Origin: Escherichia coli
GTDB lineage: Bacteria > Pseudomonadota > Gammaproteobacteria > Enterobacterales > Enterobacteriaceae
Length of the DNA stretch: 64,000 bases
Direction: 5' to 3' (one strand)
NCBI RefSeq assembly: GCF_011045215.1
Contig: NZ_CP049201.1
Shown here piece by piece: positions 3,461-64,000 of the stretch (positions within the stretch are counted from its first letter, which is position 1; every line of letters starts with the position of its first letter). The notes under the pieces are model-generated. The model was not told the origin of the DNA. It did no database searches and saw only the letters and a program-made list of their open reading frames with translations. Made by a program: the position numbers and the translations under genes.

Positions 3461-4552
<1,092 letters not shown>

Positions 4553-4555
4553 TTA

Positions 4556-4575
4556 TTGTGATCAAAAGCAACAAA
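4556..4575. promoter_or_regulatory. Weak CRP-like half-palindrome (TGTGATCAAAAGCAACA) upstream of csiD
   Basis: TGTGA-N6-CAACA in the csiD upstream region; csiD is known to be cAMP-CRP and sigma-S dependent; match is imperfect. Confidence 0.25.
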
Positions 4576-4775
4576 TTGGTAACATTTAACGTAGGGTATT
4601 AAGGCAAAGTGAGACAGGAAATGAATAACTAAAGCAACAGGTTAGGGGGGGGATTACCATCAGAGAACAGATTATCTGGTCGATAAAAAACGGTAAATGG
4701 CTTCACTGCAAAATGACCGCTAGTAAACTAAATATATTATCTGCCCCGTTTTAGCGGGGCAGATATAACATTAAA

Positions 4776-7028
4776 TTACAAATAGAGATAGTTCAGCGGT
4801 TCTCCTGTTCTCCCTAAAAGAAGAGCGCTACGCCCAGGAATATTGATATTTAGAGTTCCGCCTCTAAGCATAAATGCTTTACCAGGGGGGATACTTTTGC
4901 GTGTATTATTAATAATAATGTTAACGCTATTACTCCCCATGTTTTTATATTTTCCAGGTTGCAATTTGTTAGGCCAGGCACCTTCAACTTCTTCGTTTCC
5001 TTTATTTATTATAACTAGTCCATCATGAGGAGAGTGATTAATGTTCACAGAATCCCCACGACTAAAGGCCAGAACGTTTTTAGTTGCAAATACACCCTCA
5101 AATGCGCTCCATATTCCTGCTTTATCTATATATAATGCGTGGAATTCATTGTAGAGCTGCTGATAGGTAGAGCAACCTTTATTAAGCCACGCCTCACCGC
5201 CGACACGCGTCGACCCATCATAATTTTTAATTTCAGTCGTTGATTTTAATACTTGGCCATCCCAGTAAACTAAAGGCCTGCTGAACGGGAGAGCGGCCAT
5301 ATATGCCATTGCTAATTGTTCATCTTGTTGATGGTTAAATAGAAAATCATTGAAAAGATTGCCATTGTTAGGAAAATCATGGTTAATGTTAATCAATATC
5401 CGTCTTTTTGATGGGATGCTTGAGATTGTGGAACCCGGTTTTGATGCAAGGGTTTGGAGATCGCCACCAAATGAAAAAGCTTTTATCGTCTTCATGAGCA
5501 ATGAAAAATCAATGGCGCTTAAATCATCTCTTTCATAAAGCAGCGATGACATTTGTTCTTCATCCAACTGACAAGTTACCAGATATTCCATGTAATTCAT
5601 GACGGCTTTTTCATGATATTTTGGGTTAAATAAGTTAGTATTGTGTAATCGCTCATTATAATTTTTAAGCGGTGGGGTTATTGATCTTTCTATTTGTTCA
5701 TGTTTTGAGTGTTTTGCTGCATCGTAACGTAAACCTCGTACGCCATATTTTCGCATTTCACGAACGTATTGATTTTGCAGCATAATAACCTGGTCACTTT
5801 TGGGGGTTGTTTTAGGCATTCCATTTAAACGCTTTTCTTTTAATGCATGGAGGTTTTCCCATTCATCCTTAGAAATATTATCTTTACTAGCTTCGAAGTC
5901 TTTTGCAGTGAGATGTATATCTTCTGGATGGATTTGTTTACGTTCTTTTGTTACTGGATCGATAATAAATGGAATCAAAACCTGACCTTGCCAATAGCCA
6001 GGGATACCACCTTCTATATCTTTACTGATCTTCGCTCGTATATCAGCAGAGGGATAATCCAGGTCATTTTTACCACTACCCCCGATTCCCATAAAGTTAA
6101 AAGTATAATCAGGAATGATATCGATACCAAATTTTTTAGCATCTTTAACCAATGCGATAAAATCCTGCAAATCTCCCATTGGATTGTGGATGGTACAAAG
6201 ATCTTCGGGTTGATAAGCGTGAAACCAGTAACCTTTTTCTTCTTCGGGAGTTTCTGGTCCGTCGGCACGGAAAGTTGTCACTGGAGGGATTTGTATATAC
6301 CCATAATGGCAACGTGCAAATTCAGACATATTTTCTCTGATCTGCTGGTAGGTGGCATTAAAAGCATGAAGAATCGCTTCGCCAGGTTTTTTGGGGGTGA
6401 TGATTTCACATTGTGATTTCTGAACAGCAGTAAGAGATTTACGCTCAAGTGTTTGCCGTAGATGTTCTGGATTGATTAGTATTTTAAATGTTTCTTGCTG
6501 TCCGGAAGGTGACGTCACGTTAATATTATATACATCGGCTGCCAGCTCATAGTCAGGAATGTTAATAGCATATGCAACATATTTATCTTTTGGGGAGGGT
6601 TTGTCAGATATAATGTGGGTGAAATGTTCAGCAGGACCATACTGGTGAACCCCCTTATTATATTCTCTTTAATTCATTGTATCTCTTTGATAAATCCATG
6701 TTTTTCCTTCTCCTATCCTGTCTGGCGCTGTAATACTACGCTGTGCAGCTTTATTCAGTTCACGGTAAGTTGTATCTGGAAAAAGGGAAATTTTATAATC
6801 GTTTTTTAACAGATCATTAATGATTTTTTCTGCGTGAAAAGTTGATATAATTTCTCTGTCTTTTAAATCCTGAGGATAAACTCCACAAGCATTAATAATA
6901 TTTGTTACACAGTTTAGATATTCTAATGTATTTAATTTGGAATTTAGATCCCCGTCAGTAATGTTCCATGATAACAATGTGGGGTTGTCGATAGGTAAAT
7001 TTCTTGGTCCTGGTTTTATAGAAAACAT
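4776..7028 (-). pseudogene. ygaQ: ygaQ-like alpha-amylase-family gene split by an in-frame TAA (ORFs 6669-7028 and 4776-6518)
   Basis: The 119-aa and 580-aa ORFs are in the same frame, separated only by TAA at 6669-6671 (minus strand) and 50 sense codons; GLRYDAAKH motif resembles alpha-amylase region II (GFRxDAAKH). Confidence 0.6.
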
Positions 7029-7587
7029 AATAACGTTCCTCTAATGGTAGAGTAATATGATGTATACGTAAACATAAAAATGTTTAATTGTTGTGAAAGT
7101 AATTGCAAACAGATGTCCTATTTTTATCCAATATTTATATGGAAAAGGATAATGCTTAAATCTGTTTTTTTAATTATCGATGTGGTCTGGAGAGGCAACT
7201 GTCAAAAATCGCTCATACGAAACTAATTATTAGCAGAATAAGTTCTATAAAAGAATATATTGCTATATGAAGTTTATTTTTATGGAGTGAAAAGTAACAG
7301 ATATCATAATGATGCGAAAACTCTTCAGTTAATGTAATAAACTTATATTATTAGATACAAAATCATTACAAAGTATCATTGAATCGATGATAACTATAGA
7401 TAGTGTTAATTATTAACATTTGCTTGTTGACTGCGAGTATCGACTTTGCGAATGGAGGCGATGTCGGGTTTTATGTCGCATGTATTGACGCCCCAGGATG
7501 GATGAGAACGCATAAAAATCTGTTATTTACATCATAAGATCATCATGTTTATTGCGTGGTTTATAAGTATTGTTATTGCATACTTAA

Positions 7588-7663
7588 GGCCCTTTAGCTC
7601 AGTGGTTAGAGCAGGCGACTCATAATCGCTTAGTCGCTGGTTCAAGTCCAGCAGGGGCCACCA
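7588..7663 (+). tRNA. ileY: tRNA-Ile (anticodon CAU, lysidine-type; ileY/ileX-like)
   Basis: 76-nt sequence GGCCCTTTAGCTCAGTGGTTAGAGCAGGCGACTCATAATCGC...GGGGCCACCA with CAU in the anticodon loop and encoded CCA end; recognised as the E. coli minor tRNA-Ile. Confidence 0.93.
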
Positions 7664-35600: not shown

Positions 35601-38600
35601 TCATTTTCCTAATTCTCCAGCTAAAAGTTCAGCCTGCTTCAAAACAGTCTCTGTGGCGAGCAATGACATATCAGGCGGATAACCATATTTTTTGAGCAGA
35701 CGTTTTACCACCACGCGAATTTTTGCTCTTGCTGCTTCTTTCACTGTCCAGTCAAGACTGACATTGTTGCGGATAGCCTCCGTAAGTACGACTGCCAGTT
35801 CTCGTAGTTTTTCCTTTTCCATTAACTCGCGAGCACTGTCGTTATCTGCAACAGCAGAATAGAAGGCATATTCATAAGCGCTGAGGTTTAACTGGCTGGC
35901 AAGGCTGTCAGATTCCTGGATAGTCTTGGCAAGCTTGATTAGCTCATCAATTACCTCCGCTGCTGTCAGTACCTTGTTCTGGTAGCCATTGATTGCAGAG
36001 GTCAGCATATCAATCAGTTTTTTGCCTTGGGTGATACTTTGATTCGAGCGAACTTTAATCTCGTCAGAAAGCAGTTTTTTAAGCGTTTCCAAAGCAATAT
36101 TTCTGTGTTGGTAATCCTTCATTTCCTGAAGGAATTCTTCAGAAAGAACGGAAATATCTGGCTTTTGTATCCCAGCAGCGTCAAAAATATCAACAACTTT
36201 ATCGGTAACCAGAGCCTGATCGATAGTCTGTTTTACCCGAACTTCCAGACTGTCATTGTGTTCTTCTTCTGATCCGTCTGAGTTTTCAGTAAATTTATTC
36301 AGTCTGGCTTTTACTGCCTGGAAGAATGCTACTTCGGGTGCCGCTTCCATTGCTTTATCGTGCGGTGTCGCCAATGCAAATGCCTGCGACAAGGCTGCAA
36401 CCGCAGCCAGGAAACGCATTTTACCTTTACCGTTATCCAGCCCTAAAATATGGTTTTCTGATTCAAGAATAATTGTCAGGCGTTGTGAAGTAGTTGCGGC
36501 AAAGTAAGCTTTGTAATCGTAGCCATGCATCATGCCTTCCAGGATTTCCAGCTTTTCCTGCATGAGCGTTACAGCTTCTTCCTGAACCTCAGCAGGATCT
36601 CCACGTCCACCTGCATCAGAGTAAAAGGAGAGGGCTTCTTTTAAATCAGAGGCAATGCCCAGATAGTCAACAACCAGACCGCCTATCTTATCTTTATACA
36701 CACGGTTCACACGGGCAATTGCCTGCATGAGGTTGTGGCCTTTCATTGGTTTGTCGATATACAGCGTATGCATGCTGGGAGCGTCGAAGCCGGTTAACCA
36801 CATATCACGCACTATCACCAGTTTCAGCTTGTCGTCGTCATCCTTCATACGATTAGCCAGAACCTGACGTTCTTTTTTTGTGGTGTGGTGTTTAGCGATT
36901 TCTGGTCCGTCAGCAGCAGAAGAGGTCATGACGACTTTAATCACGCCATCATTTAGATTATCGCTGTGCCATTCAGGTTTTAACTCTATGATTTCTTTAT
37001 AAAGTTCAGCAGCAATACGACGGGACATGGTGACAATCATGCCCTTGCCATGATCGGCATTAGATTTTAAGCGCTGTTCAAAGTGCTGAACCATATCCGC
37101 CGCAATAGCTTTAATACGTTTTGAACTGCCAATCAAACCTTCGATTCTGGCCCATTTAGACCGTTCTTTCTGGGTAAGCGTCAGCTCGTCTTCGTTAAAC
37201 TCATCGTCGAAGTCTTCAATTAGCTGGCGACCTTCGTCACTGATGGCAATTTTGGCAAGACGGCTTTCATAGAAGATACGCACGGTTGCACCGTCTTCTA
37301 CGGCCTGTGAGATATCGTAGATATCAACGTAGTTACCAAAAACAGCAGGTGTGTTTACGTCCGTTTTTTCTATGGGGGTTCCGGTAAAGCCAAGATAGGT
37401 AGCATTGGGCAAGGCATCACGCATATATTTGGCAAAGCCGTAAACGGTGCGTTTACCTGTTACGTTGCCTTCGCTGTCTTTCACGTCAACTTCTTTGGCG
37501 CTGAAACCGTATTGTGAACGGTGGGCTTCATCAGCGATAACGACAATATTGGTTCTGTCTGACAACAACTCATAGATATTGCTGCCATCATTAGGCTGGA
37601 ATTTTTGAATAGTGGTAAACACCACACCACCAGAGGCTACGCGCAAATATTCTTTGAGTTCTTCCCGGTTGTCGGCCTGTTTTGGTGTCTGACGAAGTAG
37701 CTAGGTCGCGGAAGAGAACGTACCGAATAGCTGATCATCCAAATCGTTACGGTCAGTAATCACAACAACTGTCGGATTATCCAGCGCCAGCACAATTTTC
37801 CCGGTATAAAACACCATCGAAAGCGATTTACCGGAACCCTGAGTATGCCAGACTACGCCCGCTTTGCGATCTCCGGTTTTTTGCGCATTAACAAGATCTT
37901 TACTGTTACGTCCCTGCTGGCGCAGTGCCACTTCGGCAGAGGGGGAGTCCGCATTCACCGCTGAGGCACGAATAGTGGAAAGAACTGCTGCATTGACCGC
38001 GTAGTACTGGTGATAAGCCGCCATTTTTTTAACAGTACGGATACTGATAATCCCTTTGCTGTCTTCATGTTTGCTGGCCTCAAACACGATAAAGTGGCGG
38101 ATCATATCCAGCAGCGTTACAGGATTAAGCAACCCCTGTAATAAAACTTCAAGCTGTGGTTGGGTACTGGTGGCTTGCGTTTTACCGTTAGCAGTTTTCC
38201 ACGTCATATAACGACTGAAATCGGCAGAAACCGTCCCCGCTTTGGCTTCCAGCCCGTCAGATATCACATTAAAAGCATTGTAGTTAAACAGACCGGGGAT
38301 TTGGTTCTGATAGGTTTTAATCTGATTATAGGCACCTGTTACCGTAGCATTTTCGTCAGCGGCATTTTTAAGTTCGATAACGACTAATGGCAGGCCGTTG
38401 ATGAATAAAATAAGATCAGGTCGGCGGGTATGATTGCCTTCTTTGATGGTGAGCTGATTAATGACCAGAAATTCATTATTAGTGGGATCGTTAAAGTCGA
38501 TCAGGCAGGCCAGCTCTCCTTGTGTATTACCATCCTTACTGACTTCGATATTGATCCCTTCGGTCAACAGGCGATGAAAGGCCAGATTGTTTGCCATTAG

Positions 38601-38840
38601 ATCAGGTGTGCTGATCTGCATCACCTGTTTCAGGGCTTCCTCACACTTCTGTTCACTAAGGTGCGGATTCAGGCGTTGTAGAGCAATACGCACCTTATCT
38701 TCAAGGATAACCTGCTGATAGCTACGTAACGGATTGATTCCACTGGGTTCAATGTCCGGGCCGTAAACATACTCATAGCCCAGCCCTTGCAGGTGCTCAA
38801 TTGCCATTACTTCAATATCGGATTCGGTCATCTTTGCCAT
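35601..38840 (-). pseudogene. hsdR: Type I restriction enzyme R subunit HsdR interrupted by an in-frame amber codon
   Basis: ORFs 37701-38840 (N-terminal, helicase motif I GSGKS) and 35601-37646 (C-terminal) are in the same frame, separated by a single TAG at 37701-37703 (...[33 protein letters not shown]...). Confidence 0.8.
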
Positions 38841-48037: not shown

Positions 48038-48203
48038 GTTTGGGACCCTCGATTTTAGGACCCATCTTCGTGGGTCCCATTCAGGGTGCCATAACTCGTA
48101 GTTCTCAGCAATTCTCACTAGACTACAATAGACGTAAAAAAGCCCGCAGAGCTTGTGCTGTGCGGGCTTAGTAGACTTTACTGAACTTCAGTACATCAAT
48201 ATT

Positions 48204-48566
48204 TGGTGGAGCTGGCGGGAGTTGAACCCGCGTCCGAAATTCCTACATCCTCGGTACTACATGCTTAGTCAGTCTTTACATTCGCTTGCCAGCTGCGGAC
48301 GGACACGCCACTAACAAACTAGCCTGATTAAGTTTTAACGCTTCAACCCCAGGCAGGGCTTCCACGCGATCTCTTTTGGGTTTGACCTCTCTTGATCCCC
48401 GTCCTAAGAGCGGAGGCTAGGGAGAGAGGGCTCTAAGCAGGTTATTAAGCTGCTAAAGCGTAGTTTTCGTCGTTTGCGACTATTTTTTGCGGCTTTTTAC
48501 GAGGCCAACCGCCCCTCGGCATGCACCTTGGGTTTCGCAAATCCCGTCGAATCCAGAATCAGCCCC
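48204..48566 (-). ncRNA. ssrA: tmRNA (SsrA)
   Basis: Reverse complement reads GGGGCTGATTCTGGATTCGACGGGATTTGCGAAACCCAAGGTGCATGCCGAGGGGCGGTTGGCCTCGTAAAAAGCCGCAAAAAATAGTCGCAAACGACGAAAACTACGCTTTAGCAGCTTAA...GCTCCACCA, i.e. E. coli tmRNA including the ANDENYALAA tag-encoding segment; 363 nt. Confidence 0.97.
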
Positions 48567-48780
48567 AATGTGTAAAGGTAAGTATACCAGATTTATGAGC
48601 GCCATGACCAGCCTCAATGGCGTTATCGTTAAAGATTTAGCACCCATGTAGCCTGATTTTTATTCGATTAAGCAATGGGATGGCAACATTTGTGTCGGAT
48701 GTGATAGCCAATAAGATGTTCATTCGCGCCGCCGGAGAGGGAGGCGCGGTGAGGAACTGGTCAATAATTGGAGTGCAGGT

Positions 48781-49263
48781 TTAACGGTGGGCGTTTTTCA
48801 TGATACGTGCTTTATCCACCTGCCATTCGCGTTCTTTGATATCTGAACGTTTATCGTGCTGTTTCTTACCTTTGGCGACGCCGATTTTCACTTTGCACCA
48901 GGCATTTTTCCAGTACAGGGAGAGCGCCACTACGGTATAGCCTTCTCGATTGACGCGACCGTACAATGAGTCCAGTTCGCGCTGGTTGAGAAGTAACTTG
49001 CGGGTACGGGTAGGATCGCACACCACATGCGTGGAGGCCACGGCCATTGGCGTGATGTTAGCGCCAAACAGAAATGCCTCTCCGTCACGCAGAAGGACGT
49101 AGCTGTCGCTGATATTGGCTTTTCCTGCGCGCAGGGATTTAACTTCCCAGCCTTGCAGGGCAAGTCCCGCTTCGAACTCTTCTTCGATAAAGTATTCGTG
49201 ACGGGCGCGCTTGTTAAGCGCGATGGTCGCTGAACCAGGTTTATGTGCTTTTTTCTTCGTCAT
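48781..49263 (-). CDS. smpB: SsrA-binding protein SmpB
   Basis: 160-aa [36 protein letters not shown]... recognised as SmpB; directly upstream of ssrA. Confidence 0.95.
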
Positions 49264-49394
49264 AAGCGTCGTGAATCATCGGTAATCTGAAATCGAAAAC
49301 ACCCCATATCAATCCTGCGGGGGACAAGGCTCTATCTTAGCATGAACCCGATGTTACCCAGCGCCGGGATAGCGTTTTTTTTACAGCAGGATAA

Positions 49395-49871
49395 ATGATA
49401 TTATTTGTTGGATTTTTGTTGATGGAAATTGTTATGCCTCAGATTAGCCGGACCGCACTGGTACCCTACAGCGCGGAGCAAATGTATCAGTTAGTGAATG
49501 ACGTTCAGTCTTATCCTCAGTTTTTGCCGGGTTGTACCGGAAGTCGGATTCTGGAGTCCACTCCTGGGCAGATGACTGCGGCGGTAGATGTCTCTAAGGC
49601 TGGGATCAGCAAAACGTTTACTACCCGCAACCAGTTGACCAGTAACCAAAGTATTCTTATGAATCTGGTGGATGGGCCGTTCAAGAAATTGATTGGTGGA
49701 TGGAAGTTTACGCCGCTGAGCCAGGAGGCGTGTCGTATCGAGTTTCATCTCGACTTTGAGTTTACCAATAAGTTGATTGAGCTCGCCTTTGGTCGCGTGT
49801 TTAAAGAGCTGGCGTCTAATATGGTCCAGGCTTTTACGGTTCGTGCGAAAGAGGTTTACAGTGCCAGGTAA
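49395..49871 (+). CDS. ratA: Ribosome-association toxin RatA (SRPBCC family, YfjG)
   Basis: 158-aa ORF; conserved smpB-ratA-ratB neighbourhood. Confidence 0.85.
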
Positions 49872-50151
49872 AATTGCCGTTGAGGTGGCTTATGCGCTAC
49901 CTGAGAAGCAGTACCTGCAGCGCGTGACGCTGCAGGAGGGCGCGACGGTTGAAGAAGCTATTCGCGCCAGTGGCTTGCTGGAATTGCGTACCGATATCGA
50001 TTTAACTAAAAACAAAGTCGGCATTTACAGCCGTCCGACAAAACTAAGCGATAGTGTGCATGATGGCGATCGGGTGGAGATTTATCGCCCTCTCATTGCC
50101 GATCCGAAAGAGCTTCGCAGGCAACGAGCAGAAAAATCAGCGAATAAATAA
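49861..50151 (+). CDS. ratB: RatB (YfjF), probable GTG start overlapping the ratA stop
   Basis: ORF 49777-50151; GTG at 49861 gives ~96 aa ([16 protein letters not shown]...). Confidence 0.75.
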
Positions 50152-50157
50152 CGGACA

Positions 50158-50188
50158 GAAAAAAGGTGCTCATTGAGCACCTTTTTTA
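50158..50188. terminator. Bidirectional rho-independent terminator between ratB and bamE
   Basis: AAAAAGGTGCTCATTGAGCACCTTTTTT: GC stem flanked by A-tract and T-tract. Confidence 0.7.
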
Positions 50189-50212
50189 ACGTCTTTGAGA
50201 GCAACTTTATTA

Positions 50213-50554
50213 TTAGTTACCACTCAGCGCAGGTTTGTTATCAATATTGGTCAACACACCGCTACTGTTAAAGGTTAGCGTCAGCGTTTGCTGCGTTACA
50301 CCTTCATGACCTGGTTGCTGGCGGAAGACATAGAACCAGGTATTCGTACCAAATGGATCGGACATCAGCGGTGTACCCAATGCGTACGCAACTTGTTGTT
50401 GCGTCATGCCAACACGTATTTTGGATACGTCGTTAGCGGTCAGATAGTTCCCCTGGTTGATGTCAGGACGGTAAACCACTCGCTCCAGAGTGGAACAGCC
50501 TGCGGTCAACATCAATAGTACTGCTGCTGCAGCAGTCAGCGTTTTACAGCGCAT
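50213..50554 (-). CDS. bamE: Outer membrane protein assembly factor BamE (SmpA)
   Basis: 113-aa lipoprotein (lipobox LTAGC); recognised BamE sequence. Confidence 0.9.
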
Positions 50555-50702
50555 AGTGATTTGATTCCTTTTCGGGCCCGAGCAGTACGTGGCTCATCTG
50601 TAATATGCCGATGATAATAGACCTTTCATCACTTTAAAACCTTTTGCTTTCCGGTCTTACGGCGTTTTGCTGTTTACTCTGACCGTGAAGCAGGAAAAAA
50701 GT

Positions 50703-52364
50703 TTACGCCGCAAGCAGTTCTTTCGCATTCGCCAGTGTGTTACGTGTGACTTCACTGCCACCAAGCAGGCGCGCCAGTTCTTGTAACCGCGCTTTTTTAT
50801 CCAGAGATTGCATATGCGTTTCTGTCATCGCACCATCGGTTTCTTTGCTGACAAAATAGTGTTGATGACCACATCCCGCGACTTGTGGCAGGTGGGTAAC
50901 ACACATCACCTGAGTTGATTCGCCGAGTTGACGCAGCAGTTTGCCGACAACTGCCGCTGTTGGACCGCTAATCCCTACATCCACTTCATCAAAAATCAGT
51001 GCCGGGGTTTCCATTTTACGCGCCGTGATGACCTGGATTGCCAGTGCGATGCGGGACAATTCACCACCGGATGCGACTTTGGCAATAGGCTGCATTGGCT
51101 GACCTGGGTTGGTGGTTACCCGAAACTCAATACGATCGGCACCGTCAGCGCCCAGGTGATGCTCGTCAAATTTAACATCGATCGTAAACTGCCCATGCGG
51201 CATTGAGAGCGCATGCATACTGTCGGTGATCAGCTGTGCAAGTTCTTCTGCATATTGCTGGCGTTGTTGGTGTAATGCGCGCGCGGTTTCCAGTGCCTGC
51301 TGATGATGTTTCGTTACCGCCAGCGCGAGCGTTTCTTGTGAGTCGGCCTGATCGTCCAGTTGCTGCTGTTCTTCCAGTAGCGACTGGTAATACTGTGGTA
51401 ATGCCTCAGGGCTGACGTGATGTTTACGTGCCAGCGAAATCTGTTTTGAGATGCGTTGTTCAAGTTCAAACAGCCGGTTGGGATCGAGATCCAAACGATC
51501 GCAGTAGTGGCGCAGTTCGTCGCTGGCTTCAGCAATCTGGATGGTAGCTTCTTCCAGCATATCAAGTACGCCGGACAGTTTGCTGTCCATGTCAATCAAT
51601 TCGCTCACCAGTTGTTTAGCCGTGTAAAGCTGACTTTGCAGGTTTGCGTCTTCACCGTCGGCCATTAATGCCAATGCATTCTGGCTGGTGGTCAGCAATT
51701 GACCGCTGTTCGCCAGACGTTTGTACTCTTCGTCGATTTGCTCAAACTCTCCGGGCTGCGGATTAAATTCGTTAAGTTCTTTTAATTGGTATTGCAGCAG
51801 TTCCGCACGGGCGGCGCGTTCCTGACTTAACTGTTGATGATGCGCGAGGTCACGGCAGCTTTGATGCCACAACTGATAACGTGCGGTCATTTCCTGAAGT
51901 AGAGAGGTTTCATTGGCATAGCCATCAACCTGGAATTTTTGGTGCTCGGGTTTGGTGAGTAACTGATGAGCGTGCTGACCATGGATCTGAATCAGCAACT
52001 GACCCAGTTCGCGCAGTTGTGACAGAGGAACAGCTGTACCGTTGATGAAACCACGGGAGCGACCATCGCTGCTGATCACGCGACGAAGCAAACATTCATG
52101 CCCGTCTTCAAGCTGGTTTTCTTCCAGCCAGCGCAGAGCCGCTGGCGTATCTTTCAGAGAAAAACGGGCGCACAGGTCAGCGCGAGCAGCGCCGGTACGC
52201 ACCATGTCGGCTTCAGCGCGACCACCGAGACAAAGACCGAGGGCATCTATTGCAATAGATTTACCCGCGCCGGTCTCGCCAGTTATTACGGTCATGCCGC
52301 TATGAAAATCAATCTCAAGCTCACGAACGATAGCAAAGTTGCTGATGGTCAGTTGTGCCAACAT
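50703..52364 (-). CDS. recN: DNA repair protein RecN
   Basis: 553-aa ORF with SMC-like Walker A (GETGAGKS) and coiled-coil middle region. Confidence 0.95.
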
Positions 52365-52375
52365 AGTCGTTTTCC

Positions 52376-52434
52376 TGTATGAAAAACCATTACTGTTATT
52401 GCGTACAGTATAAACTGGTTTTATATACAGTAAA
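52376..52434. promoter_or_regulatory. LexA (SOS) boxes in the recN promoter
   Basis: CTG-N10-CAG motifs read directly: TACTGTTATTGCGTACAGTA (52393-52412), ACTGGTTTTATATACAGT (52416-52433), weaker CCTGTATGAAAAACCAT (52376-52392); recN is a known LexA target. Confidence 0.7.
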
Positions 52435-52449
52435 GAGGCTGGCGTAAAA

Positions 52450-53328
52450 TTAGAATAATTTTTTTGACCAGCCGAGCTTGGTGCTTAATGTGTTGAAATA
52501 ACTGTAATCTTTCGGATGAATCAGATTCAGATGGTAATCACAGCGACGAATCAGGACATCTTCACCTTCCTGAATCGGCAGTGCTATCTGGCTGTCGCAA
52601 CTGATTTCCAGGTCGTTACGGCGATGCGAAAAACGCAGACGGATCGTGCTGCTGCTGTTTATGACCAGTGGTCGTGCTGACAACGTATGCGGGAACATGG
52701 GCACCAGGGTAATCGCATCCAGAGAGGGGGTCAGAATAGGACCGCCCGCAGAGAGGGAATAGGCGGTGGAGCCTGTTGGCGTCGAAATAATTAGCCCATC
52801 AGATCGCTGAGAAAACGCAAAGATCTCGTCGATATACACTTCGAACTCTATCATATGCGCCACTTTGCCTGGATGAAGTACCACTTCATTTATCGCGGTG
52901 CTGATGCGCTTTTGGCAATCTTGCTGACAGACTTGCGCTTCCAGCAAAAAACGTTTCTCGCTGATGTAGTGACCTTCCAGCACATCGGCTAATTGTTGCT
53001 GGGCGTTATCGGGGTCAAGGTCAGTCAGGAAACCCAGGTTGCCACGGTTGATTCCAATAACTTTAATATCGTAACGGGCGAGCGTGCGCGCCGCGCCCAG
53101 CATATTACCGTCGCCACCAACGACTACCGCGAGATCAGCCAGTTGCCCAATCTCCGCGAGCGTGCCAGTTTTCACATTCTTCAGTTGCAGTTCGTGAGCG
53201 ATTTGTTGCTCAACGATGACCTCGTAACCTTTTGTGCACAGCCAGCGGTAGAGCATTTCATGTGTTGTCAGTGCAGTAGGGTGCCGTGGGTGTCCCACAA
53301 TGCCAATACACTTGAAATGATTATTCAT
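52450..53328 (-). CDS. nadK: NAD kinase NadK
   Basis: 292-aa ORF with GGDG motif ([14 protein letters not shown]). Confidence 0.95.
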
Positions 53329-53374
53329 TTTTCCGAGGTCCTTGTTGCGAAGATTGATGACAATGTGAGTGCTT

Positions 53375-53405
53375 CCCTTGAAACCCTGAAACTGATCCCC
53401 ATAAT
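53375..53405 (+). promoter_or_regulatory. Sigma-32 heat-shock promoter of grpE
   Basis: CCCTTGAAA (-35) and CCCCATAAT (-10) with ~13-bp spacer upstream of grpE. Confidence 0.65.
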
Positions 53406-53417
53406 AAGCGAAGTTAG

Positions 53418-54044
<627 letters not shown>

Positions 54045-54065
54045 TTTCTGTTTTCGTAATAATTC

Positions 54066-54100
54066 ACGGCCCTGCATGCGAATGTCGGGCCGTTTTCGTT
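54066..54100. terminator. Hairpin between convergent grpE and yfjD
   Basis: ACGGCCC-N14-GGGCCGT followed by TTTTCGTT. Confidence 0.5.
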
Positions 54101-55385
54101 ACTCCGCCACACTCTCGCGCAGCGGTTTCACAGGAAAAACTTTTACCTGCTTAATCATATTGTCCTGTACGTCGAGAATATCGATATCGTACTCGCCAAT
54201 ACGCACGCGGGTGCCTGCGACAGGAATCTCTTCCAGTGCCTCAAGAATGACGCCATTAACCGTGCGGGCATCATCTTCCGGTAGATGCCAGTTAAAGGCT
54301 TTGTTGATTTCCCGCACGTTGGCAGTGCCATCAATAATCACCGAACCGTCGTTTTGCGGCGTGACCTCTTCGGCAAGTGTTGGCGACATCGACGTGGTGA
54401 AATCACCAACTATCTCTTCCAGAATATCTTCAACCGTCACCAGCCCCTGAATGTCTCCATACTCGTTGACGACCAGGCCGACTTTCTTTTTGTTGCGCTG
54501 AAACTTAACCAACTGCGTGCTGAGGGGCGTACCTTCCGGGACAAAATAGATCTCGTCCGCGGCGCGCAGCATGGTTTCTTTGGTGAACTCTTTTTTCTCC
54601 GACATCAACCGCCAGGCTTCACGTACTCGCAGCATACTGATGGCGTCGTCCAGCGAATCACGGTAGAGCACGATGCGCCCGTGAGGTGAGTGGGAGAGTT
54701 GGCGCAGAATCGATTTCCAGTCATCGTTGATATCAATACCGATAATTTCACTGCGCGGCACCATGATGTCATCAACGGTCATTTTTTCCAGATCGAGCAC
54801 CGACAGCAGCATATCCTGATTGCGACGGGAAATTTGTGAGCGCGATTCATGCACGATAGTGCGCAACTCTTCTTTGCTCAAAGAGCCGCTGACCACGATA
54901 TCGGTTTTGATGCCCATCATGCGCATTAACATGCGGGTGATAGCGTTCAGCAACCAGACCAGCGGCATCATCAAAATTTGCAGCGGTGCTAACAGAATAC
55001 TACTCGGATAAGCGACTTTTTCCGGGTATAGCGCAGCGATAGTTTTCGGCAACACTTCGGCAAAAACCAGCACCACAAAGGTCAGCACACCAGTCGCAAT
55101 TGCCACGCCCGCATCGCCGTACAAACGCATCCCAACAATAGTGCCGAGCGCGGAGGCAAGAATATTGACCAGGTTATTGCCGATTAACACCAGGCTTATC
55201 AGCCGGTCTGGCTTACGCAGCAATTTTTCGACGCGTTTGGCCGAGCGATTACCCTGTTTCGCCATATGTCGCAGACGATAGCGGTTGAGGGTCATCATTC
55301 CGGTTTCGGACCCGGAGAAATAGGCTGAAATGACCACCATGATGATCAGAATAATGATCAACGTAGTAGTAGAAATGTGTTCCAG
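54099..55385 (-). CDS. yfjD: CNNM/CorC-family inner-membrane protein YfjD (UPF0053); start codon uncertain (CTG at 55385 or TTG at 55361)
   Basis: DUF21 TM domain plus CBS pair plus CorC/HlyC C-terminal domain; AAGGAG lies 7 nt upstream of an in-frame CTG; no in-frame ATG or GTG upstream of the TTG used by the ORF track. Confidence 0.8.
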   Translation of the reverse strand: MEHISTTTLIIILIIMVVISAYFSGSETGMMTLNRYRLRHMAKQGNRSAKRVEKLLRKPDRLISLVLIGNNLVNILASALGTIVGMRLYGDAGVAIATGVLTFVVLVFAEVLPKTIAALYPEKVAYPSSILLAPLQILMMPLVWLLNAITRMLMRMMGIKTDIVVSGSLSKEELRTIVHESRSQISRRNQDMLLSVLDLEKMTVDDIMVPRSEIIGIDINDDWKSILRQLSHSPHGRIVLYRDSLDDAISMLRVREAWRLMSEKKEFTKETMLRAADEIYFVPEGTPLSTQLVKFQRNKKKVGLVVNEYGDIQGLVTVEDILEEIVGDFTTSMSPTLAEEVTPQNDGSVIIDGTANVREINKAFNWHLPEDDARTVNGVILEALEEIPVAGTRVRIGEYDIDILDVQDNMIKQVKVFPVKPLRESVAE

Positions 55386-55405
55386 GGGAAACTCCTTTTC
55401 TGGGT

Positions 55406-56197
55406 TTAGCTGATTAACTGCTGGACAATTCGGCTGCCGAAGTAGGCCAGTGTCAGAATGACTGCACCCGCAACGTTAAACCAGACGACGCGGCGTCCAC
55501 GCCATCCTTCATGATAATGTCCCCACAGCAGCACAATATAGACAAACCACGCCACGATAGAGAGCACAGCCTTGTCGATATTTTCCATGCTAAATAAGTT
55601 GTGCTTGTAGAACAGGCCAGTGCAAAGCGTGAGCGTTAGCAGCACTACGCCAATCTGCGTGATGTGGAACATTTTACGCTCGATACTCATCAATGGCGGC
55701 ATTTCCTGGTTAAACGCCAGCTTCTTGTTCTTCAGTTGGTAATCAATCCACGCCAGTTGCAGCGCGTACAGGGCGGCGATAATTAGCGTGGCATAGGAAA
55801 AGAGCGATAAGCCAATGTGCACCAGCATCCTAGGCGTAGCTTCCAGATGGGTGATGTATTCATTGGGCATGAAGGTTGCCAGCGCCAGGTTGATAAGCGC
55901 AAAGGCATAGACAATGGGTAGCAGCAACCAGCCACGATTGCGAGAAGCCACAATGGTCATTACCGTACAGATCATCAAACTGACCAATGAACCAACGTTC
56001 AGCAGGCTGAGGTTTTGTCCGCTATCACCGTCGGGCAGGATGCGGGCTTCCAGAGCGATTGCGTGGCAGACCAGCGCAATGACCGCAGAAATAATAGCCA
56101 TGCGCCGCCAGCCGCCGTTTTTTTGCAGCAGACCGGGAACAATCAGCGCAAGACTGACGGAGTAGGCGACAAGCGCGAGCAGAGCAAAAACGGGCAT
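55406..56197 (-). CDS. ypjD: Inner-membrane protein YpjD (cytochrome c assembly-like)
   Basis: ORF 55406-56272; likely start MPVFALLALVAYS (56197, ~263 aa); multi-TM. Confidence 0.8.
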   Translation of the reverse strand: MPVFALLALVAYSVSLALIVPGLLQKNGGWRRMAIISAVIALVCHAIALEARILPDGDSGQNLSLLNVGSLVSLMICTVMTIVASRNRGWLLLPIVYAFALINLALATFMPNEYITHLEATPRMLVHIGLSLFSYATLIIAALYALQLAWIDYQLKNKKLAFNQEMPPLMSIERKMFHITQIGVVLLTLTLCTGLFYKHNLFSMENIDKAVLSIVAWFVYIVLLWGHYHEGWRGRRVVWFNVAGAVILTLAYFGSRIVQQLIS

Positions 56198-56363
56198 AGT
56201 AATGTCGACAGTTTGAGCAATAAGAAAGAGAAGCAGTATAGCGTCAGGTGAACGCTGCTCCAACCGTTGCATAACAACAAAGACGCCTTCATGTTATACT
56301 GCGGCAAAATACTGATGATGTGTCGCGATTGCGGCCAACCGTTTCCACCCCAGGCGAGAGACA

Positions 56364-57725
56364 ATGTTTGATAATTTAACCGATCGTTTGTCGCGCACGC
56401 TGCGCAATATCAGTGGCCGTGGACGCCTCACTGAAGACAACGTAAAAGATACGCTGCGCGAAGTGCGCATGGCGCTGCTGGAGGCGGACGTCGCTCTGCC
56501 GGTAGTGCGTGAGTTTATCAATCGCGTAAAAGAGAAAGCGGTTGGTCATGAAGTTAATAAGAGCCTGACGCCGGGGCAGGAGTTCGTCAAAATCGTCCGT
56601 AACGAACTGGTTGCGGCGATGGGCGAAGAGAACCAGACCCTGAACCTGGCTGCGCAACCGCCTGCGGTCGTACTGATGGCGGGCCTGCAAGGTGCCGGTA
56701 AAACAACCAGCGTTGGTAAACTCGGTAAGTTCCTGCGCGAGAAGCACAAGAAGAAAGTGCTGGTGGTTTCTGCCGACGTTTATCGCCCGGCGGCAATCAA
56801 ACAGCTTGAGACGCTGGCAGAGCAGGTGGGCGTTGATTTCTTCCCTTCTGATGTTGGTCAGAAGCCGGTAGATATCGTTAACGCGGCGCTGAAAGAAGCC
56901 AAACTGAAATTCTACGACGTGCTGCTGGTGGATACCGCTGGTCGTCTGCACGTTGACGAAGCGATGATGGACGAGATCAAACAAGTCCATGCGTCGATTA
57001 ACCCGGTTGAAACCCTGTTTGTGGTTGACGCCATGACCGGTCAGGATGCGGCCAATACGGCAAAAGCATTCAATGAAGCGTTACCGCTTACCGGCGTAGT
57101 GTTGACCAAAGTGGACGGCGATGCCCGCGGCGGTGCGGCGCTCTCTATTCGTCACATCACTGGCAAACCGATCAAGTTCCTCGGTGTTGGCGAGAAAACT
57201 GAGGCGCTGGAGCCGTTCCATCCGGACCGCATCGCGTCGCGTATTCTCGGCATGGGCGACGTACTGTCGCTGATCGAAGATATCGAAAGCAAAGTTGACC
57301 GCGCGCAGGCAGAGAAATTAGCCAGCAAGCTGAAAAAAGGTGACGGCTTCGATCTCAACGACTTTCTTGAGCAGCTGCGCCAGATGAAAAATATGGGCGG
57401 CATGGCTAGCCTGATGGGCAAGCTGCCGGGCATGGGGCAGATCCCGGATAACGTCAAGTCACAGATGGACGATAAAGTGCTGGTGCGTATGGAAGCCATC
57501 ATCAACTCGATGACGATGAAAGAGCGCGCTAAGCCAGAAATCATCAAAGGTTCGCGTAAACGCCGTATTGCTGCCGGTTGCGGTATGCAGGTGCAGGACG
57601 TTAACCGTCTTCTGAAACAGTTCGACGACATGCAGCGCATGATGAAGAAAATGAAGAAGGGCGGAATGGCGAAGATGATGAGAAGCCTGAAGGGGATGAT
57701 GCCGCCGGGATTTCCTGGTCGCTAA
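56364..57725 (+). CDS. ffh: Signal recognition particle protein Ffh
   Basis: 453-aa ORF with GTPase motifs (GLQGAGKTT, DTAGR) and Met-rich C-terminal M domain. Confidence 0.95.
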   Translation: MFDNLTDRLSRTLRNISGRGRLTEDNVKDTLREVRMALLEADVALPVVREFINRVKEKAVGHEVNKSLTPGQEFVKIVRNELVAAMGEENQTLNLAAQPPAVVLMAGLQGAGKTTSVGKLGKFLREKHKKKVLVVSADVYRPAAIKQLETLAEQVGVDFFPSDVGQKPVDIVNAALKEAKLKFYDVLLVDTAGRLHVDEAMMDEIKQVHASINPVETLFVVDAMTGQDAANTAKAFNEALPLTGVVLTKVDGDARGGAALSIRHITGKPIKFLGVGEKTEALEPFHPDRIASRILGMGDVLSLIEDIESKVDRAQAEKLASKLKKGDGFDLNDFLEQLRQMKNMGGMASLMGKLPGMGQIPDNVKSQMDDKVLVRMEAIINSMTMKERAKPEIIKGSRKRRIAAGCGMQVQDVNRLLKQFDDMQRMMKKMKKGGMAKMMRSLKGMMPPGFPGR

Positions 57726-57783
57726 ATGACCTTATGCGACAGAGTTATTAACTGCTGATTGCATTTTCTCCAGAAATCAGTAA

Positions 57784-58110
<327 letters not shown>

Positions 58111-58128
58111 TCTGTCACGGTGGTCATG

Positions 58129-58677
58129 ATGAGCAAACAACTCACCGCGCAAGCACCTGTTGATCCCATCGTTTTGGGAAAAATGGGTTCGTCTTACGGT
58201 ATTCGTGGGTGGCTCAGAGTGTTTTCTTCCACCGAAGACGCCGAAAGCATTTTTGACTATCAGCCCTGGTTTATCCAGAAGGCGGGTCAGTGGCAGCAAG
58301 TCCAGCTGGAAAGCTGGAAGCACCACAATCAGGACATGATCATCAAGCTGAAAGGCGTTGACGATCGTGATGCGGCGAACCTGCTGACAAATTGTGAAAT
58401 TGTCGTGGATTCATCGCAGCTGCCTCAGCTTGAAGAGGGTGACTACTACTGGAAAGACCTGATGGGCTGCCAGGTAGTAACCACTGAAGGCTACGATCTC
58501 GGTAAAGTCGTCGATATGATGGAAACCGGATCCAATGACGTTCTCGTCATTAAGGCAAACCTGAAAGATGCGTTTGGTATCAAGGAACGTCTCGTACCGT
58601 TCCTCGATGGGCAGGTTATCAAGAAAGTCGATCTCACTACTCGTTCAATCGAAGTAGATTGGGATCCTGGTTTTTAA
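58129..58677 (+). CDS. rimM: Ribosome maturation factor RimM
   Basis: ORF 58120-58677; start at [10 protein letters not shown] gives 182 aa. Confidence 0.9.
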
Positions 58678-58707
58678 ACCACCGGATAAACGGTAAAAGA
58701 CGGCGCT

Positions 58708-59475
58708 ATGTGGATTGGCATAATTAGCCTGTTTCCTGAAATGTTCCGCGCAATTACCGATTACGGGGTAACTGGCCGGGCAGTTAAAAATGGCCTGCTG
58801 AGCATCCAGAGCTGGAGTCCTCGCGATTTCACGCATGACCGGCACCGTACCGTGGACGATCGTCCTTACGGCGGCGGACCGGGGATGTTAATGATGGTGC
58901 AACCCTTGCGGGACGCCATTCATGCAGCAAAAGCCGCGGCGGGTGAAGGCGCAAAGGTGATTTATCTTTCACCACAGGGACGCAAGCTTGATCAAGCGGG
59001 CGTCAGCGAACTGGCAACGAATCAAAAATTGATTCTGGTGTGCGGTCGCTACGAAGGTATAGATGAGCGCGTGATCCAAACCGAAATTGACGAAGAATGG
59101 TCAATCGGCGATTACGTTCTCAGTGGTGGTGAGTTACCAGCAATGACGCTGATTGACTCCGTTTCCCGGTTTATTCCGGGAGTACTGGGACATGAAGCCT
59201 CGGCAACGGAAGATTCCTTTGCTGAAGGATTGCTGGATTGCCCGCACTATACGCGGCCTGAGGTGTTAGAAGGGATGGAAGTTCCGCCAGTGTTACTGTC
59301 GGGCAACCATGCCGAGATACGTCGCTGGCGTTTGAAACAGTCGCTGGGCCGTACCTGGCTTAGAAGACCTGAACTTCTGGAAAACCTGGCTCTGACTGAA
59401 GAGCAAGCAAGGTTGCTGGCGGAGTTCAAAACGGAACACGCACAACAGCAACATAAACATGATGGGATGGCGTAA
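58708..59475 (+). CDS. trmD: tRNA (guanine37-N1)-methyltransferase TrmD
   Basis: 255-aa [33 protein letters not shown]... recognised as TrmD. Confidence 0.95.
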
Positions 59476-59513
59476 GCCCCCGAGATATCAGTTTACCCAG
59501 GATAAGAGATTAA

Positions 59514-59864
<351 letters not shown>

Positions 59865-59892
59865 GATTTCGCTTAAGCGACATCCTGTTAAG

Positions 59893-59925
59893 AAGGGCTG
59901 GCCAATTGGCTGGCCCTTTTTTTAT
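59893..59925. terminator. Rho-independent terminator after rplS
   Basis: AGGGCTGGCCAATTGGCTGGCCCTTTTTTT: perfect GC-rich hairpin plus T7 tract. Confidence 0.8.
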
Positions 59926-59940
59926 CTGTTTGCTCGTGTT

Positions 59941-60423
59941 TTAAGGGGTAGTAATCACCACTGCGACGCGGCGGTTCTCGGCGCGGCCCTGGGCGGTCTT
60001 GTTACTGGCTATGGGATATTTTTTTCCTAAACCCTGTGTGGTGAGATTGCTGCGCGGAATTTGTCCACCCATAGCCCATGCATCGGCCACGACATTCGCC
60101 CGTTTCAATGATAAGCCTTCGTTGTAACTGTCTTCACCATAGTTATCGGTGTGTCCATCCATACGGGCATGTGTTAGCCCTGTCGAGGCCAATTTGGCTG
60201 CCATGGTTTGGATCTGTTGCTGGCTTTCCGGGAGCAATTTGTAGTCATTTTTTGCGAACAGAATGGCATCTGATAAGCCCAGCGACCAGTCGCCGGCGGA
60301 TTCAGTAAATCCATAAGATTGCATAGCGGCGACTTGCTCAGGAGTAAACTTTCCCTGAGGGGACTGGCAGCCAGTCAGTATTAGTGAGGTGAAAATCAGG
60401 GGTGCTACCAGGTGCTTTATCAT
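59941..60423 (-). CDS. yfiB: OmpA-family lipoprotein YfiB
   Basis: 160-aa ORF with lipobox (LTGCQS) and OmpA-like C-terminal domain; yfiR-yfiN-yfiB operon context. Confidence 0.9.
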   Translation of the reverse strand: MIKHLVAPLIFTSLILTGCQSPQGKFTPEQVAAMQSYGFTESAGDWSLGLSDAILFAKNDYKLLPESQQQIQTMAAKLASTGLTHARMDGHTDNYGEDSYNEGLSLKRANVVADAWAMGGQIPRSNLTTQGLGKKYPIASNKTAQGRAENRRVAVVITTP

Positions 60424-60438
60424 ATCGATATATCCTTG

Positions 60439-61665
60439 TTATCTCACCAGCTTTTCGGCACGCTGGTGTTTGGCCTGATACATATTGTGATCGGCAAGCT
60501 CTTGTAATTTTTCCGCAGAGGCGTGCTCAATGGTCATCGCGTAACCAATGCTTAATGTCATGGTGGTCTGATGGCCATTATGAAGATCAAACGGGAGATT
60601 AAAGATTTGTGTCAGTGCTGAGCATATCTGCTGCACTTCAGATTCCGACTGTACACCATAGAGCACCATCGCGAATTCATCGCCGCCCAGGCGGTATGCT
60701 TTATGTCGCAGCCCGCCAAATTCAGCTAACCGTTTTGCGATTTCAATCAAGACTCTATCGCCCGTCGCATGACCCCAGGTATCATTGATATATTTGAAAT
60801 TATCGCCATCAAGAAATAGTAACGCCGACGTTTTTCGGGCATCGGAATTGTTCATCAACGTATTGATGCCGCTACGAAACGCTGCGCGGTTAGCCAGCCC
60901 GGTTAATGGGTCATGTAGCGCGGTACGCAGAAGCTGCGCATTTTTGGCCTGTAAACGAAGCTGCCACTCTTCCATTTCATCCAGCAGACTGTTGAAGTCG
61001 AGAGCGAAGCGGTGAAACTCAGCGATACGTTCTTCCGAAACTCGTCGGGAAAAATTGCGGTTGGAACGCACATCATGTACGACATCGGTGATATTTTTCA
61101 GTGCTTCCACCAGGCCATTGTGCAAATGGCGGGTGAGGGTAATTGCGATTCCTGATGCCAGCAGAATACAACCGGTCAGTACGGCGAGCGAAAACCAGAT
61201 AAAATGGCTGATTGAACTGTCGCGAGCGGTTAAGCGTACTTCGCCAATGGTTTCGCCATTGTGACGAATCGGCTGAATGATGGGCGCAGGGAAGAGCCAG
61301 TGGCTTATGAAATTGCTGAAAGTATCGCCTGGATCCTTACGGGTGTAATGCCAGGATGCCAGAATATTTTGCTGCTTATCACGTACTTCTGCAGTTGAAA
61401 ATTGCCCTTGCTGGCCCAGCGCTGCCAGTGTTTCAGTTGCTGCAGGGCCATCGGCAAAAACGACAGCTGCTTCCAGACTGTAAGTCATTGTTGCTGCTGT
61501 CAGTGCCAGGTTTTTTTGCGCGTACTGTTTCAGGGTCAGCACCGAGGTCACGGAAAGCAGCAACCAGATCAGCATCATAGTGATAAATATGCTGGTCATA
61601 CTGATGTTGCGTAATGCTCTTTTAAACGTGGGGCGCTTATTAAGAGAATTATCGTTATCCATCAT
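60439..61665 (-). CDS. dgcN: Diguanylate cyclase DgcN (YfiN)
   Basis: 408-aa ORF with N-terminal TM/periplasmic region, HAMP and a GGDEF domain (RLGGDEF). Confidence 0.9.
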
Positions 61666-62173
61666 TTTTCTTCCGTGCGAGCATTAAGACATCCGGGTTG
61701 ACCTTTACACCGCTACGCGATAAGGCATCCAGGTTTACGGCAAATCTGACGTCATTATTGTGGATGATCAGACAAAAGGCGCTACCAATAATGCACTCGG
61801 TATTTTGTTCGGCAATTAATAATAACGCCTTTGACGGATATTGTTCGGTTAATTCCATCTGGAATGTCGGTGACTCGTTGCCAAAATAAAAACCATTGCA
61901 GCCTGAAATCATCGCCTCTTGTTGAGTGTGAATGATGACAGGCAGATAAGGCAAAGATGTCGCGGCATTCTCTTGTAGGGCGGTACTAAAACGTGAAGAT
62001 GAAAAGATACATAACTTTGGTGGCCCTGATAGCGCAGGCCAGCGGGTGTAACTGACAATACCGGAAACCATCATACGCACGTTTTTCGCAACGTCAGAAG
62101 GCTCCAGAGCGAGTATTGGTGCTCCCGTCAGCAGGAGAATCAGCAGTAAGAACAGTCGGTGAGAAAAACGCAT
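61655..62173 (-). CDS. yfiR: Periplasmic DgcN inhibitor YfiR
   Basis: 172-aa secreted protein; start overlaps the dgcN region; conserved operon order. Confidence 0.9.
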
Positions 62174-62322
62174 TCAGGGATCCCCACCATCTTCGCTCGA
62201 AATGCATCGATATTTTTTCAGAATGCTCATTAAAATATCATTTTTTCATGCGACCGTCATCAATGTGAGAAATAAAACACAATGAGCCAAATCTTATGTT
62301 TAATTTATTTGTGGGGTTTTAA

Positions 62323-62688
62323 TTAATTTAATCGTATTGTGCTGGCATTTTCATCAGCCCCTTTTTGCCATACTTCATGCAGTTGGCTGGCATTTTCAAC
62401 ATTGTTGCAGCTGGCAGGAAAGCTTTTACCGGAAAGTCCCCGGGCATAAGTAAAATCGGTCTGGCAAGTTTTCTTTTGTCCTTCGGCATATCCTTTAAGG
62501 TATAGACCGCGATCCGCCTGTGAATCGCTAAATGCATCGTCATCTTTTATGGCGCTGCCCGATATCGCATCTTCCATACCGACATCATACCAGTCGGTGC
62601 TGGTCAAGGTTGGCGCGTGAGTATAAGGATCAATCTGACATCCGCTAACCAGTAAAGCCAACAAGGGGGCGATAAACTTTTTCATCAT
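62323..62688 (-). CDS. yfiL: Lipoprotein YfiL
   Basis: ORF 62323-62706; probable start ATGATG (MMKKFIAPLLALLVSGC) with AAGGAG 7 nt upstream; lipobox LVSGC. Confidence 0.8.
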   Translation of the reverse strand: MMKKFIAPLLALLVSGCQIDPYTHAPTLTSTDWYDVGMEDAISGSAIKDDDAFSDSQADRGLYLKGYAEGQKKTCQTDFTYARGLSGKSFPASCNNVENASQLHEVWQKGADENASTIRLN

Positions 62689-62733
62689 TTCTTTCTCCTT
62701 TTTCAAAGCATAGCGGATTGTTTTTAAAGGAGG

Positions 62734-62802
62734 TGTAAATTTATTTGTACGAAATAAGCATCAAAAGCGCGAGTAAATTGTTTCTGTAAAGAAAAATGTA
62801 CG
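62734..62802. promoter_or_regulatory. TyrR boxes in the aroF-tyrA promoter region
   Basis: TGTAAA-N6-TGTACG at 62734-62751 and 62785-62802 (TyrR consensus TGTAAA-N6-TTTACA); aroF is a classic TyrR-repressed promoter. Confidence 0.65.
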
Positions 62803-62896
62803 AAATATGGATTGAAAACTTTACTTTATGTGTTATCGTTACGTCATCCTCGCTGAGGATCAACTATCGCAAACGAGCATAAACAGGATCGCCATC

Positions 62897-63967: not shown

Positions 63968-63977
63968 GAGGTTTATT

Positions 63978-64000
63978 ATGGTTGCTGAATTGACCGCATT
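63978..64000 (+). CDS. tyrA: Chorismate mutase/prephenate dehydrogenase TyrA, first codons only
   Basis: ATG at 63978 followed by MVAELTA...; 10 bp downstream of the aroF stop as in the aroF-tyrA operon. Confidence 0.8.

Follow-up and report, generated by a model that had tools for sequence, protein, structure and literature searches.

The ygaQ gene of Escherichia coli K-12 is a known pseudogene, whose fragments were once named separately as ygaQ, ygaR and others. It lies in the order ileY-ygaQ-glaH/csiD-lhgO-gabD and retains a frame of 751 codons that is broken by nonsense codons without any frameshift, namely the three ambers at codons 111, 346 and 614, which are widespread in the species. 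Promoters that H-NS represses lie within the K-12 gene, a pattern typical of silenced DNA of horizontal origin (PMC7229825), and the 110-aa K-12 YgaQ fragment is reported to make cells resistant to mitomycin C on overexpression and to cleave ssDNA 5' flaps (PMC4725251). A second damaged form of the gene is found in the O157-like strain 28RC1 and 283 others, and consists of an otherwise full-length ygaQ with a single in-frame nonsense codon, in this case at codon 413 within the catalytic domain and fixed in a clonal group. Uninterrupted versions of the same gene are present in E. coli TUM13936 (WP_276270337.1) and in E. albertii. The structural point of reference is the alpha-amylase of Bacillus subtilis (1BAG/1UA7), which YgaQ resembles in its predicted TIM barrel and C-terminal beta domain and in its region II and region IV motifs, although YgaQ is just 17–18% identical to the Bacillus enzyme, has an extra N-terminus of about 200 aa, has no visible signal peptide and has a Phe in region I.

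The allele described here comes from a stretch of E. coli DNA of 64,000 nucleotides (contig NZ_CP049201.1), referred to below as the window. Unlike the K-12 gene it has none of the three ambers, and carries instead one private ochre at codon 120; unlike the O157-type gene its stop is unique, and unlike the TUM13936 and E. albertii genes it is interrupted. It is very probably a young unitary loss-of-function pseudogene, produced by a single recent G-to-T nonsense mutation (Glu120 to ochre) and free of secondary decay. The phenomenon of ygaQ pseudogenes is thus known, and what is new is the Glu120-ochre allele.

The ygaQ locus and its premature stop

In every genome fetched, ygaQ is flanked by the tRNA-Ile gene ileY and DUF5507/ypjC on one side and by glaH(csiD)-lhgO-gabD on the other, and its transcription is directed toward glaH. 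The window has the same ileY and glaH neighbours, and over 2,451 bp its sequence is 96.4% identical at the nucleotide level to K-12 strains, with 83 differences and zero indels in the 2,253-bp CDS. The PGAP labels, ‘alpha-amylase family glycosyl hydrolase’ and ‘alpha amylase C-terminal domain-containing protein’, also agree with the identity that the first-pass annotation had assigned to the gene. With 37.6% G+C, the CDS is much richer in AT than the adjoining glaH-lhgO genes (55.9% G+C). Among 5,426 complete E. coli genomes the ygaQ stretch is matched in 4,105, of which 3,365 have at least 80% of it covered and 740 hold a partial ygaQ only, whilst 1,321 genomes gave no match.

The features of the locus, together with those of a second interrupted gene discussed below, are as follows, with positions given in the window.

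4738..4765, minus strand: strong hairpin resembling a terminator (stem of 11 bp), 11 nt past the natural ygaQ stop
4776..7028, minus strand: whole ygaQ frame, 751 codons including the premature and the terminal TAA; the coordinates are those of the intact TUM13936 CDS
4776..6668, minus strand: 630 sense codons and the natural stop, 3' of the premature TAA; predicted to hold the entire GH13 barrel and C-terminal beta domain, and presumably untranslated
4815..5084, minus strand: Pfam Alpha-amylase_C match (all-beta), residues 649-738
5469..6239, minus strand: Pfam Alpha-amylase match, residues 264-520, holding region II (GLRYDAAKH) with the nucleophile Asp436 at 5721-5723
6669..6671, minus strand: premature ochre TAA at codon 120, with the substitution at 6671, which is T on the coding strand and G in all other sampled alleles
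6672..7028, minus strand: N-terminal 119 codons, still translatable, an Escherichia-restricted orphan region that spans the entire 110-aa K-12 YgaQ fragment
7036..7041, minus strand: GAGGAA resembling a Shine-Dalgarno sequence, 7 nt before the start codon (ATG at 7028), read from the sequence
7588..7663, plus strand: tRNA gene ileY, CAU anticodon, flanking ygaQ
35601..38840, minus strand: hsdR, type I restriction subunit of an ssrA-linked island, a 1,080-codon frame with TAG at codon 380 (37701-37703)

Two ORFs are listed on the minus strand, one of 119 aa at 7028..6669 and one of 580 aa at 6518..4776. When the region 7028..4776 (-) is translated in one frame it gives 751 codons, in which stops occur only at codon 120 and at the terminus, the former being the TAA at 6671..6669 (-). 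The 50 codons that lead from this TAA to the GTG start of the 580-aa ORF are sense throughout, and the TAA is the sole separator of the two ORFs. The earlier proposal that both share one frame and are split by the TAA at 6669-6671 alone is therefore exact in its coordinates. From the base composition of the CDS a stop is expected at a frequency of 0.069 per codon, and the probability that 630 codons remain open by chance is about 3e-20, which indicates a genuine coding frame that has been interrupted once. For annotation this means that the 119-aa and 580-aa ORFs belong together as one pseudogene rather than as two genes.

The proposed lesion is a single G-to-T transversion, which would have changed the Glu120 codon from GAA to TAA. 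Translation from the native ATG and its GAGGAA ribosome-binding site would then end after 119 residues, ahead of the barrel, and the remaining 630 codons, with every GH13 motif, would not be made for want of a further in-frame start that has a ribosome-binding site. The first in-frame starts 3' of the TAA are GTG171 (6518), which lacks a Shine-Dalgarno sequence, and ATG234 (6329), already within the barrel. A translational restart that would supply the catalytic part was considered and, given these two starts, judged unlikely, as is a functional C-terminal product from the TAA allele. It appears that ygaQ is monocistronic, since the terminator-like hairpin stands directly past its stop, and the possession of its own terminator argues against polarity, such that a polar effect on glaH is not expected.

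Two further sequence differences were seen close to the gene. Just downstream, glaH/csiD (3632-4578) carries 40 SNPs relative to TUM13936 within less than 1 kb, between near-identical flanks, and looks like a short recombination patch. On the other side, position 45 of tRNA ileY (window 7632, variable loop CTTAG) is A in the window and G in four other strains. The variable loop of ileY is polymorphic in E. coli, with TCCGG in 28RC1, and the A at 7632 is probably harmless.

The codon 120 stop among other genomes

The TUM13936 allele is identical to the window over 2,451 bp with the exception of the first base of codon 120, which gives GAA (Glu) in place of TAA. Within the CDS this corresponds to identity at 2,252 of 2,253 bases, and the TUM13936 gene is annotated as an intact protein of 750 aa (WP_276270337.1). 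This single G/T difference upholds the suggestion, made from the sequence of the window alone, that a gene of about 750 codons had recently acquired a nonsense mutation. A wider comparison was made with 21 full-length E. coli alleles, fetched so as to spread across the identity ranking. Codon 120 is GAA in all 21, and 12 of them have an uninterrupted 750-codon gene. The E. albertii orthologue, which shares 59–60% protein identity and is syntenic, being located upstream of csiD-lhgO-gabDTP, is also uninterrupted at 738 aa, and an 824-aa metagenomic homologue (34–35% identity) aligns across the position of the stop. The first-pass annotation had named a comparison with intact orthologues as the way to check its reading, and the outcome in which two separate genes are found did not appear.

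Across the first 10 kb of the window, outside the 1-kb glaH patch, few sites differ from TUM13936, and inside ygaQ the TAA base is the one that does. As the nonsense base is the sole ygaQ difference between the two, the mutation postdates every other substitution in the allele. Signs of secondary decay in the form of further stops, frameshifts or an excess of non-synonymous change were looked for against the TUM13936 CDS, from which there are zero other differences. Amongst the intact alleles dS is 0.07–0.20 and dN 0.01–0.02, and the resulting omega of 0.05–0.17 implies that uninterrupted ygaQ is maintained by purifying selection.

Amongst the 5,426 complete E. coli genomes there is no exact match to the window across ygaQ, and a 101-nt probe with the TAA in its middle found no perfect match either, with 10 genomes at one mismatch. 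The codon 120 TAA is hence private to the strain of the window, although this privacy partly reflects sampling because the lineage is poorly represented: over the core region at 48200-64000 the best identity to any genome in the collection is 99.4%.

A private base of this kind raises the question of whether the TAA could be a base-call or assembly error in a strain whose codon 120 truly reads GAA and whose ygaQ, as in TUM13936, is an intact gene of 750 codons. There is a small chance that this is so. Over 2,451 bp nothing but the T at 6671 separates the sequence from an intact allele, this T occurs in 0 of 5,426 genomes, and the window contains a second private nonsense SNP, in hsdR. The first-pass annotation had also mentioned hsdR as the other in-frame nonsense pseudogene of the window, and this holds, as the 1,080-codon frame at 38840..35601 (-) is interrupted by the TAG at codon 380. 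Apart from this CAG>TAG change, the 3,240 nt are identical to the intact hsdR of TUM9812, and a 601-bp probe from hsdR has an exact match in no complete genome. That no second genome among the 5,426 searched carries the TAA base, and that two nonsense changes fall within a handful of private SNPs, which is above the expectation for random mutation, are points against a genuine mutation; two private nonsense changes in one window might be a sign of assembly errors, or of selection for loss. Against an error, however, the two changes differ in type (G>T in ygaQ, C>T in hsdR), the other nearby private SNPs are innocuous, and at least four other ygaQ stop alleles exist in hundreds to thousands of genomes. 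Moreover, substitution errors are rare in finished assemblies, where the typical errors are homopolymer indels and not transversions.

The hsdR gene is located in a region of about 32 kb (window ~15600-48200), between ypjA and ssrA, that forms an island with an integrase, ParB-like genes and a type I restriction-modification system (hsdM, hsdS, hsdR). At the same site TUM13936 has a P2-like prophage, and the ssrA site holds different elements in otherwise similar backgrounds.

Under the preferred explanation, a recent nonsense mutation in ygaQ, the stop would be a real change, the C-terminal product would be absent and the loss would be tolerated through dispensability of the gene in most E. 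coli. Since ygaQ is reportedly silenced by H-NS in K-12 (PMC7229825), the functional consequence of the stop may be nil either way.

The predicted YgaQ protein and its GH13 motifs

Intact YgaQ is predicted, from profile matches and structural models, to be a divergent GH13 barrel with a C-terminal beta domain, set behind an orphan N-terminus of about 200 residues. The Pfam evidence consists of marginal passes, with PF00128 at 22.5 bits (cut-off 22) and PF02806 at 27.1 bits (cut-off 21.2). A profile of the YgaQ family matches the B. subtilis alpha-amylase 1BAG/1UA7 in the PDB with an E-value of 4e-19. An AlphaFold (AF2) model of residues 196-750, built from 12 sequences, has a pLDDT of 63.6 and a pTM of 0.70, and its top Foldseek matches are 3dc0, 1ua7 and 1bag, with E-values of about 1e-15 and a TM-score of 0.67 on the target; a model of the full-length protein, made with a 5-sequence alignment, had a pLDDT of 40. 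The first strand of the barrel, ILHAFN, begins at about residue 219.

The catalytic motifs are unevenly preserved. Region II, GLRYDAAKH, aligns with GFRFDAAKH of the B. subtilis enzyme (BSUA), and its nucleophile, D436, is invariant in the alignments; the motif is found in 20 of 21 E. coli alleles, the remaining one having A437T next to the nucleophile Asp. In region IV, ININHD, the pair H550-D551 is invariant. The canonical region I motif, DxxxNH, is not kept and reads DYTFNF, with Asp307 and Asn311 retained and the His replaced by Phe312 in E. coli, in E. albertii and in a full-length relative from a gut metagenome (P0008), whilst the NH is present in cyanobacterial relatives.

The general acid/base Glu of region III appears to be missing. 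In a HMMER alignment the Glu of BSUA (E208, in YGEIL) falls on N465 of YgaQ, and MAFFT places the corresponding Glu of P0008 (in FGET) and of cyanobacterial relatives (in FAEI) on N463, in both cases within a part of the model where the pLDDT is below 50. Both residues belong to the motif HNTN (residues 462-465, window ~5630-5650 (-)), and the acid/base-aligned position is Asn in all 21 E. coli alleles; in E. albertii it is Asn or Ile, depending on the register. An invariant Glu, E481, lies 18 residues downstream, again where the model has a pLDDT below 50, and by comparison with Bacillus amylases it is probably on helix alpha5. A MAFFT column that places E481 under ‘YGEIL’ of another aligned sequence (P0013) was rejected as an alignment artefact due to an insertion in the latter, given that the adjoining sequence matches helix alpha5 of Bacillus. 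The apparent absence of a canonical acid/base residue is mildly surprising, and judged by these motifs intact YgaQ may not be a conventional hydrolase.

The YgaQ family is tiny, with members in E. coli and E. albertii and a single sequence from a gut metagenome, beyond which come distant amylases of cyanobacteria, and profile searches intended to deepen the alignment added almost nothing. A search of residues 1-215 against 1.84 billion cluster representatives returned fragments of ygaQ itself and no other homologue. These matches were E. coli ygaQ fragments of 44–133 aa, with no full-length 750-aa representative, although a full-length YgaQ cluster of 15,629 members exists in another protein database. 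The missing representative is probably a clustering artefact, reflecting the many pseudogene fragments that are called as separate proteins. Inspection of the YgaQ sequence by eye, not with a predictor, revealed no signal peptide.

The one full-length relative from outside Escherichia, P0008 (34% identity), is encoded at 4916-7390 of the human gut metagenome contig ERZ983566. Its neighbours include an InvH-like type III secretion lipoprotein fragment, an LRR fragment and a FidL-like protein with an OmpR/HilA-type regulator. An EAL protein and a giant invasin/intimin-like adhesin are also present, and the setting is of the virulence-island type.

The combination of an apparently absent acid/base Glu, a retained nucleophile, an orphan N-terminus, no visible signal peptide and the virulence-type island around P0008 has led to the consideration that YgaQ is a GH13 pseudoenzyme or effector associated with the host or with secretion. 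The repeated, independent knock-outs of the gene, this one included, would then be selected, either by antagonistic pleiotropy or because they release an active N-terminal fragment, the reported 110-aa ‘nuclease’. This proposal is decidedly improbable.

Recurrent inactivation of ygaQ in E. coli

The window allele combines a gene of the intact-type clade with its own independent lesion, and it joins a series of other inactivations found in the sampled strains. Genome counts in the following lines are from exact 61-nt probes.

Stop at codon 413: O157-like strain 28RC1; CAG>TAG; 284 genomes
Stop at codon 614 alone: three sampled strains; TGG>TAG; stop 614 in 2,383 genomes
Stops at codons 346 and 614: three sampled strains; TGG>TAG; stop 346 in 1,073 genomes
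Stops at codons 111, 346 and 614: K-12; TGG>TAG; stop 111 in 893 genomes
Frameshift in ygaQ: one sampled strain
IS3 truncation of ygaQ: one sampled strain

The stops of the K-12-type lineage are nested across strains and their counts fall in the order 2,383 > 1,073 > 893, which fits a stepwise acquisition of stop 614, then 346 and then 111. Overall, at least 2,667 genomes have one of two nonsense alleles (stop 614 or 413) and, when the 740 genomes with a partial gene and the 1,321 unmatched genomes are taken into account, intact ygaQ emerges as the minority state. About 4.9% of the possible point changes in the AT-rich ygaQ CDS create a stop, and hence nonsense mutation is an expected route of loss for a gene under relaxed selection.

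Codon 111 has a further variant. In E. coli O25:H16 F5505-C1 it is CAG, compared to TGG in intact alleles and TAG in K-12, and the ambers at 346 and 614 are still present. This is most simply explained by the path TGG>TAG>CAG, with a sense ‘reversion’ after the gene had already died, or alternatively by recombination.

The proximity of the stops at codons 111 and 120 bears on the idea that the 119-aa fragment is functional, like the 110-aa nuclease fragment of K-12, and that its release is the reason why stops recur around codons 111-120. The K-12 fragment is reported to be soluble and active when expressed (PMC4725251), the 119-aa ORF spans the whole of the corresponding region with its native start and Shine-Dalgarno sequence kept, and the stops at 111 (K-12 lineage) and 120 arose independently in a segment that varies or is missing in E. 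albertii. However, the nesting and counts of the K-12 stops indicate that the stop at codon 111 came last, after 614 and 346, in a gene that was already dead, and the closeness of two out of five nonsense sites is not significant. The N-terminus, moreover, has no homologues outside ygaQ and no recognised nuclease domain, and deletion of ygaQ alone gave no mitomycin C phenotype (PMC4725251). A selected release of the fragment is therefore very unlikely.

The weakest of the alternatives, that the two ORFs are independent genes or that ribosomes pass the stop through programmed readthrough or suppression, can be dismissed. Independent genes are ruled out by the single 750-aa CDS in 12 of 21 strains, the single 738-aa CDS in E. 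albertii and the continuity of homology across the stop, and the downstream ORF has no Shine-Dalgarno sequence; a conserved or programmed stop is ruled out in that the TAA is private, being conserved in no other genome (21 alleles, and the local haplotype in 5,426 genomes), and UAA is the least leaky stop codon. The separate naming of the fragments as ygaQ and ygaR in early K-12 annotations (PMC4725251) is the one point in favour of two genes.

Taken by itself, a loss-of-function allele of a dispensable AT-rich gene that is already a pseudogene in K-12 is ordinary and of little import. The window ygaQ, understood as a recent nonsense allele, represents the earliest stage of decay, with a single lesion and no further deterioration. 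Across the species at least five independent inactivations of ygaQ are found, yet the intact alleles are under strong purifying selection, and the gene is best viewed as a polymorphic pseudogene. It is this stepwise and convergent inactivation, throughout E. coli, of a gene that is otherwise held under purifying selection that is mildly surprising and of relevance to population genetics.
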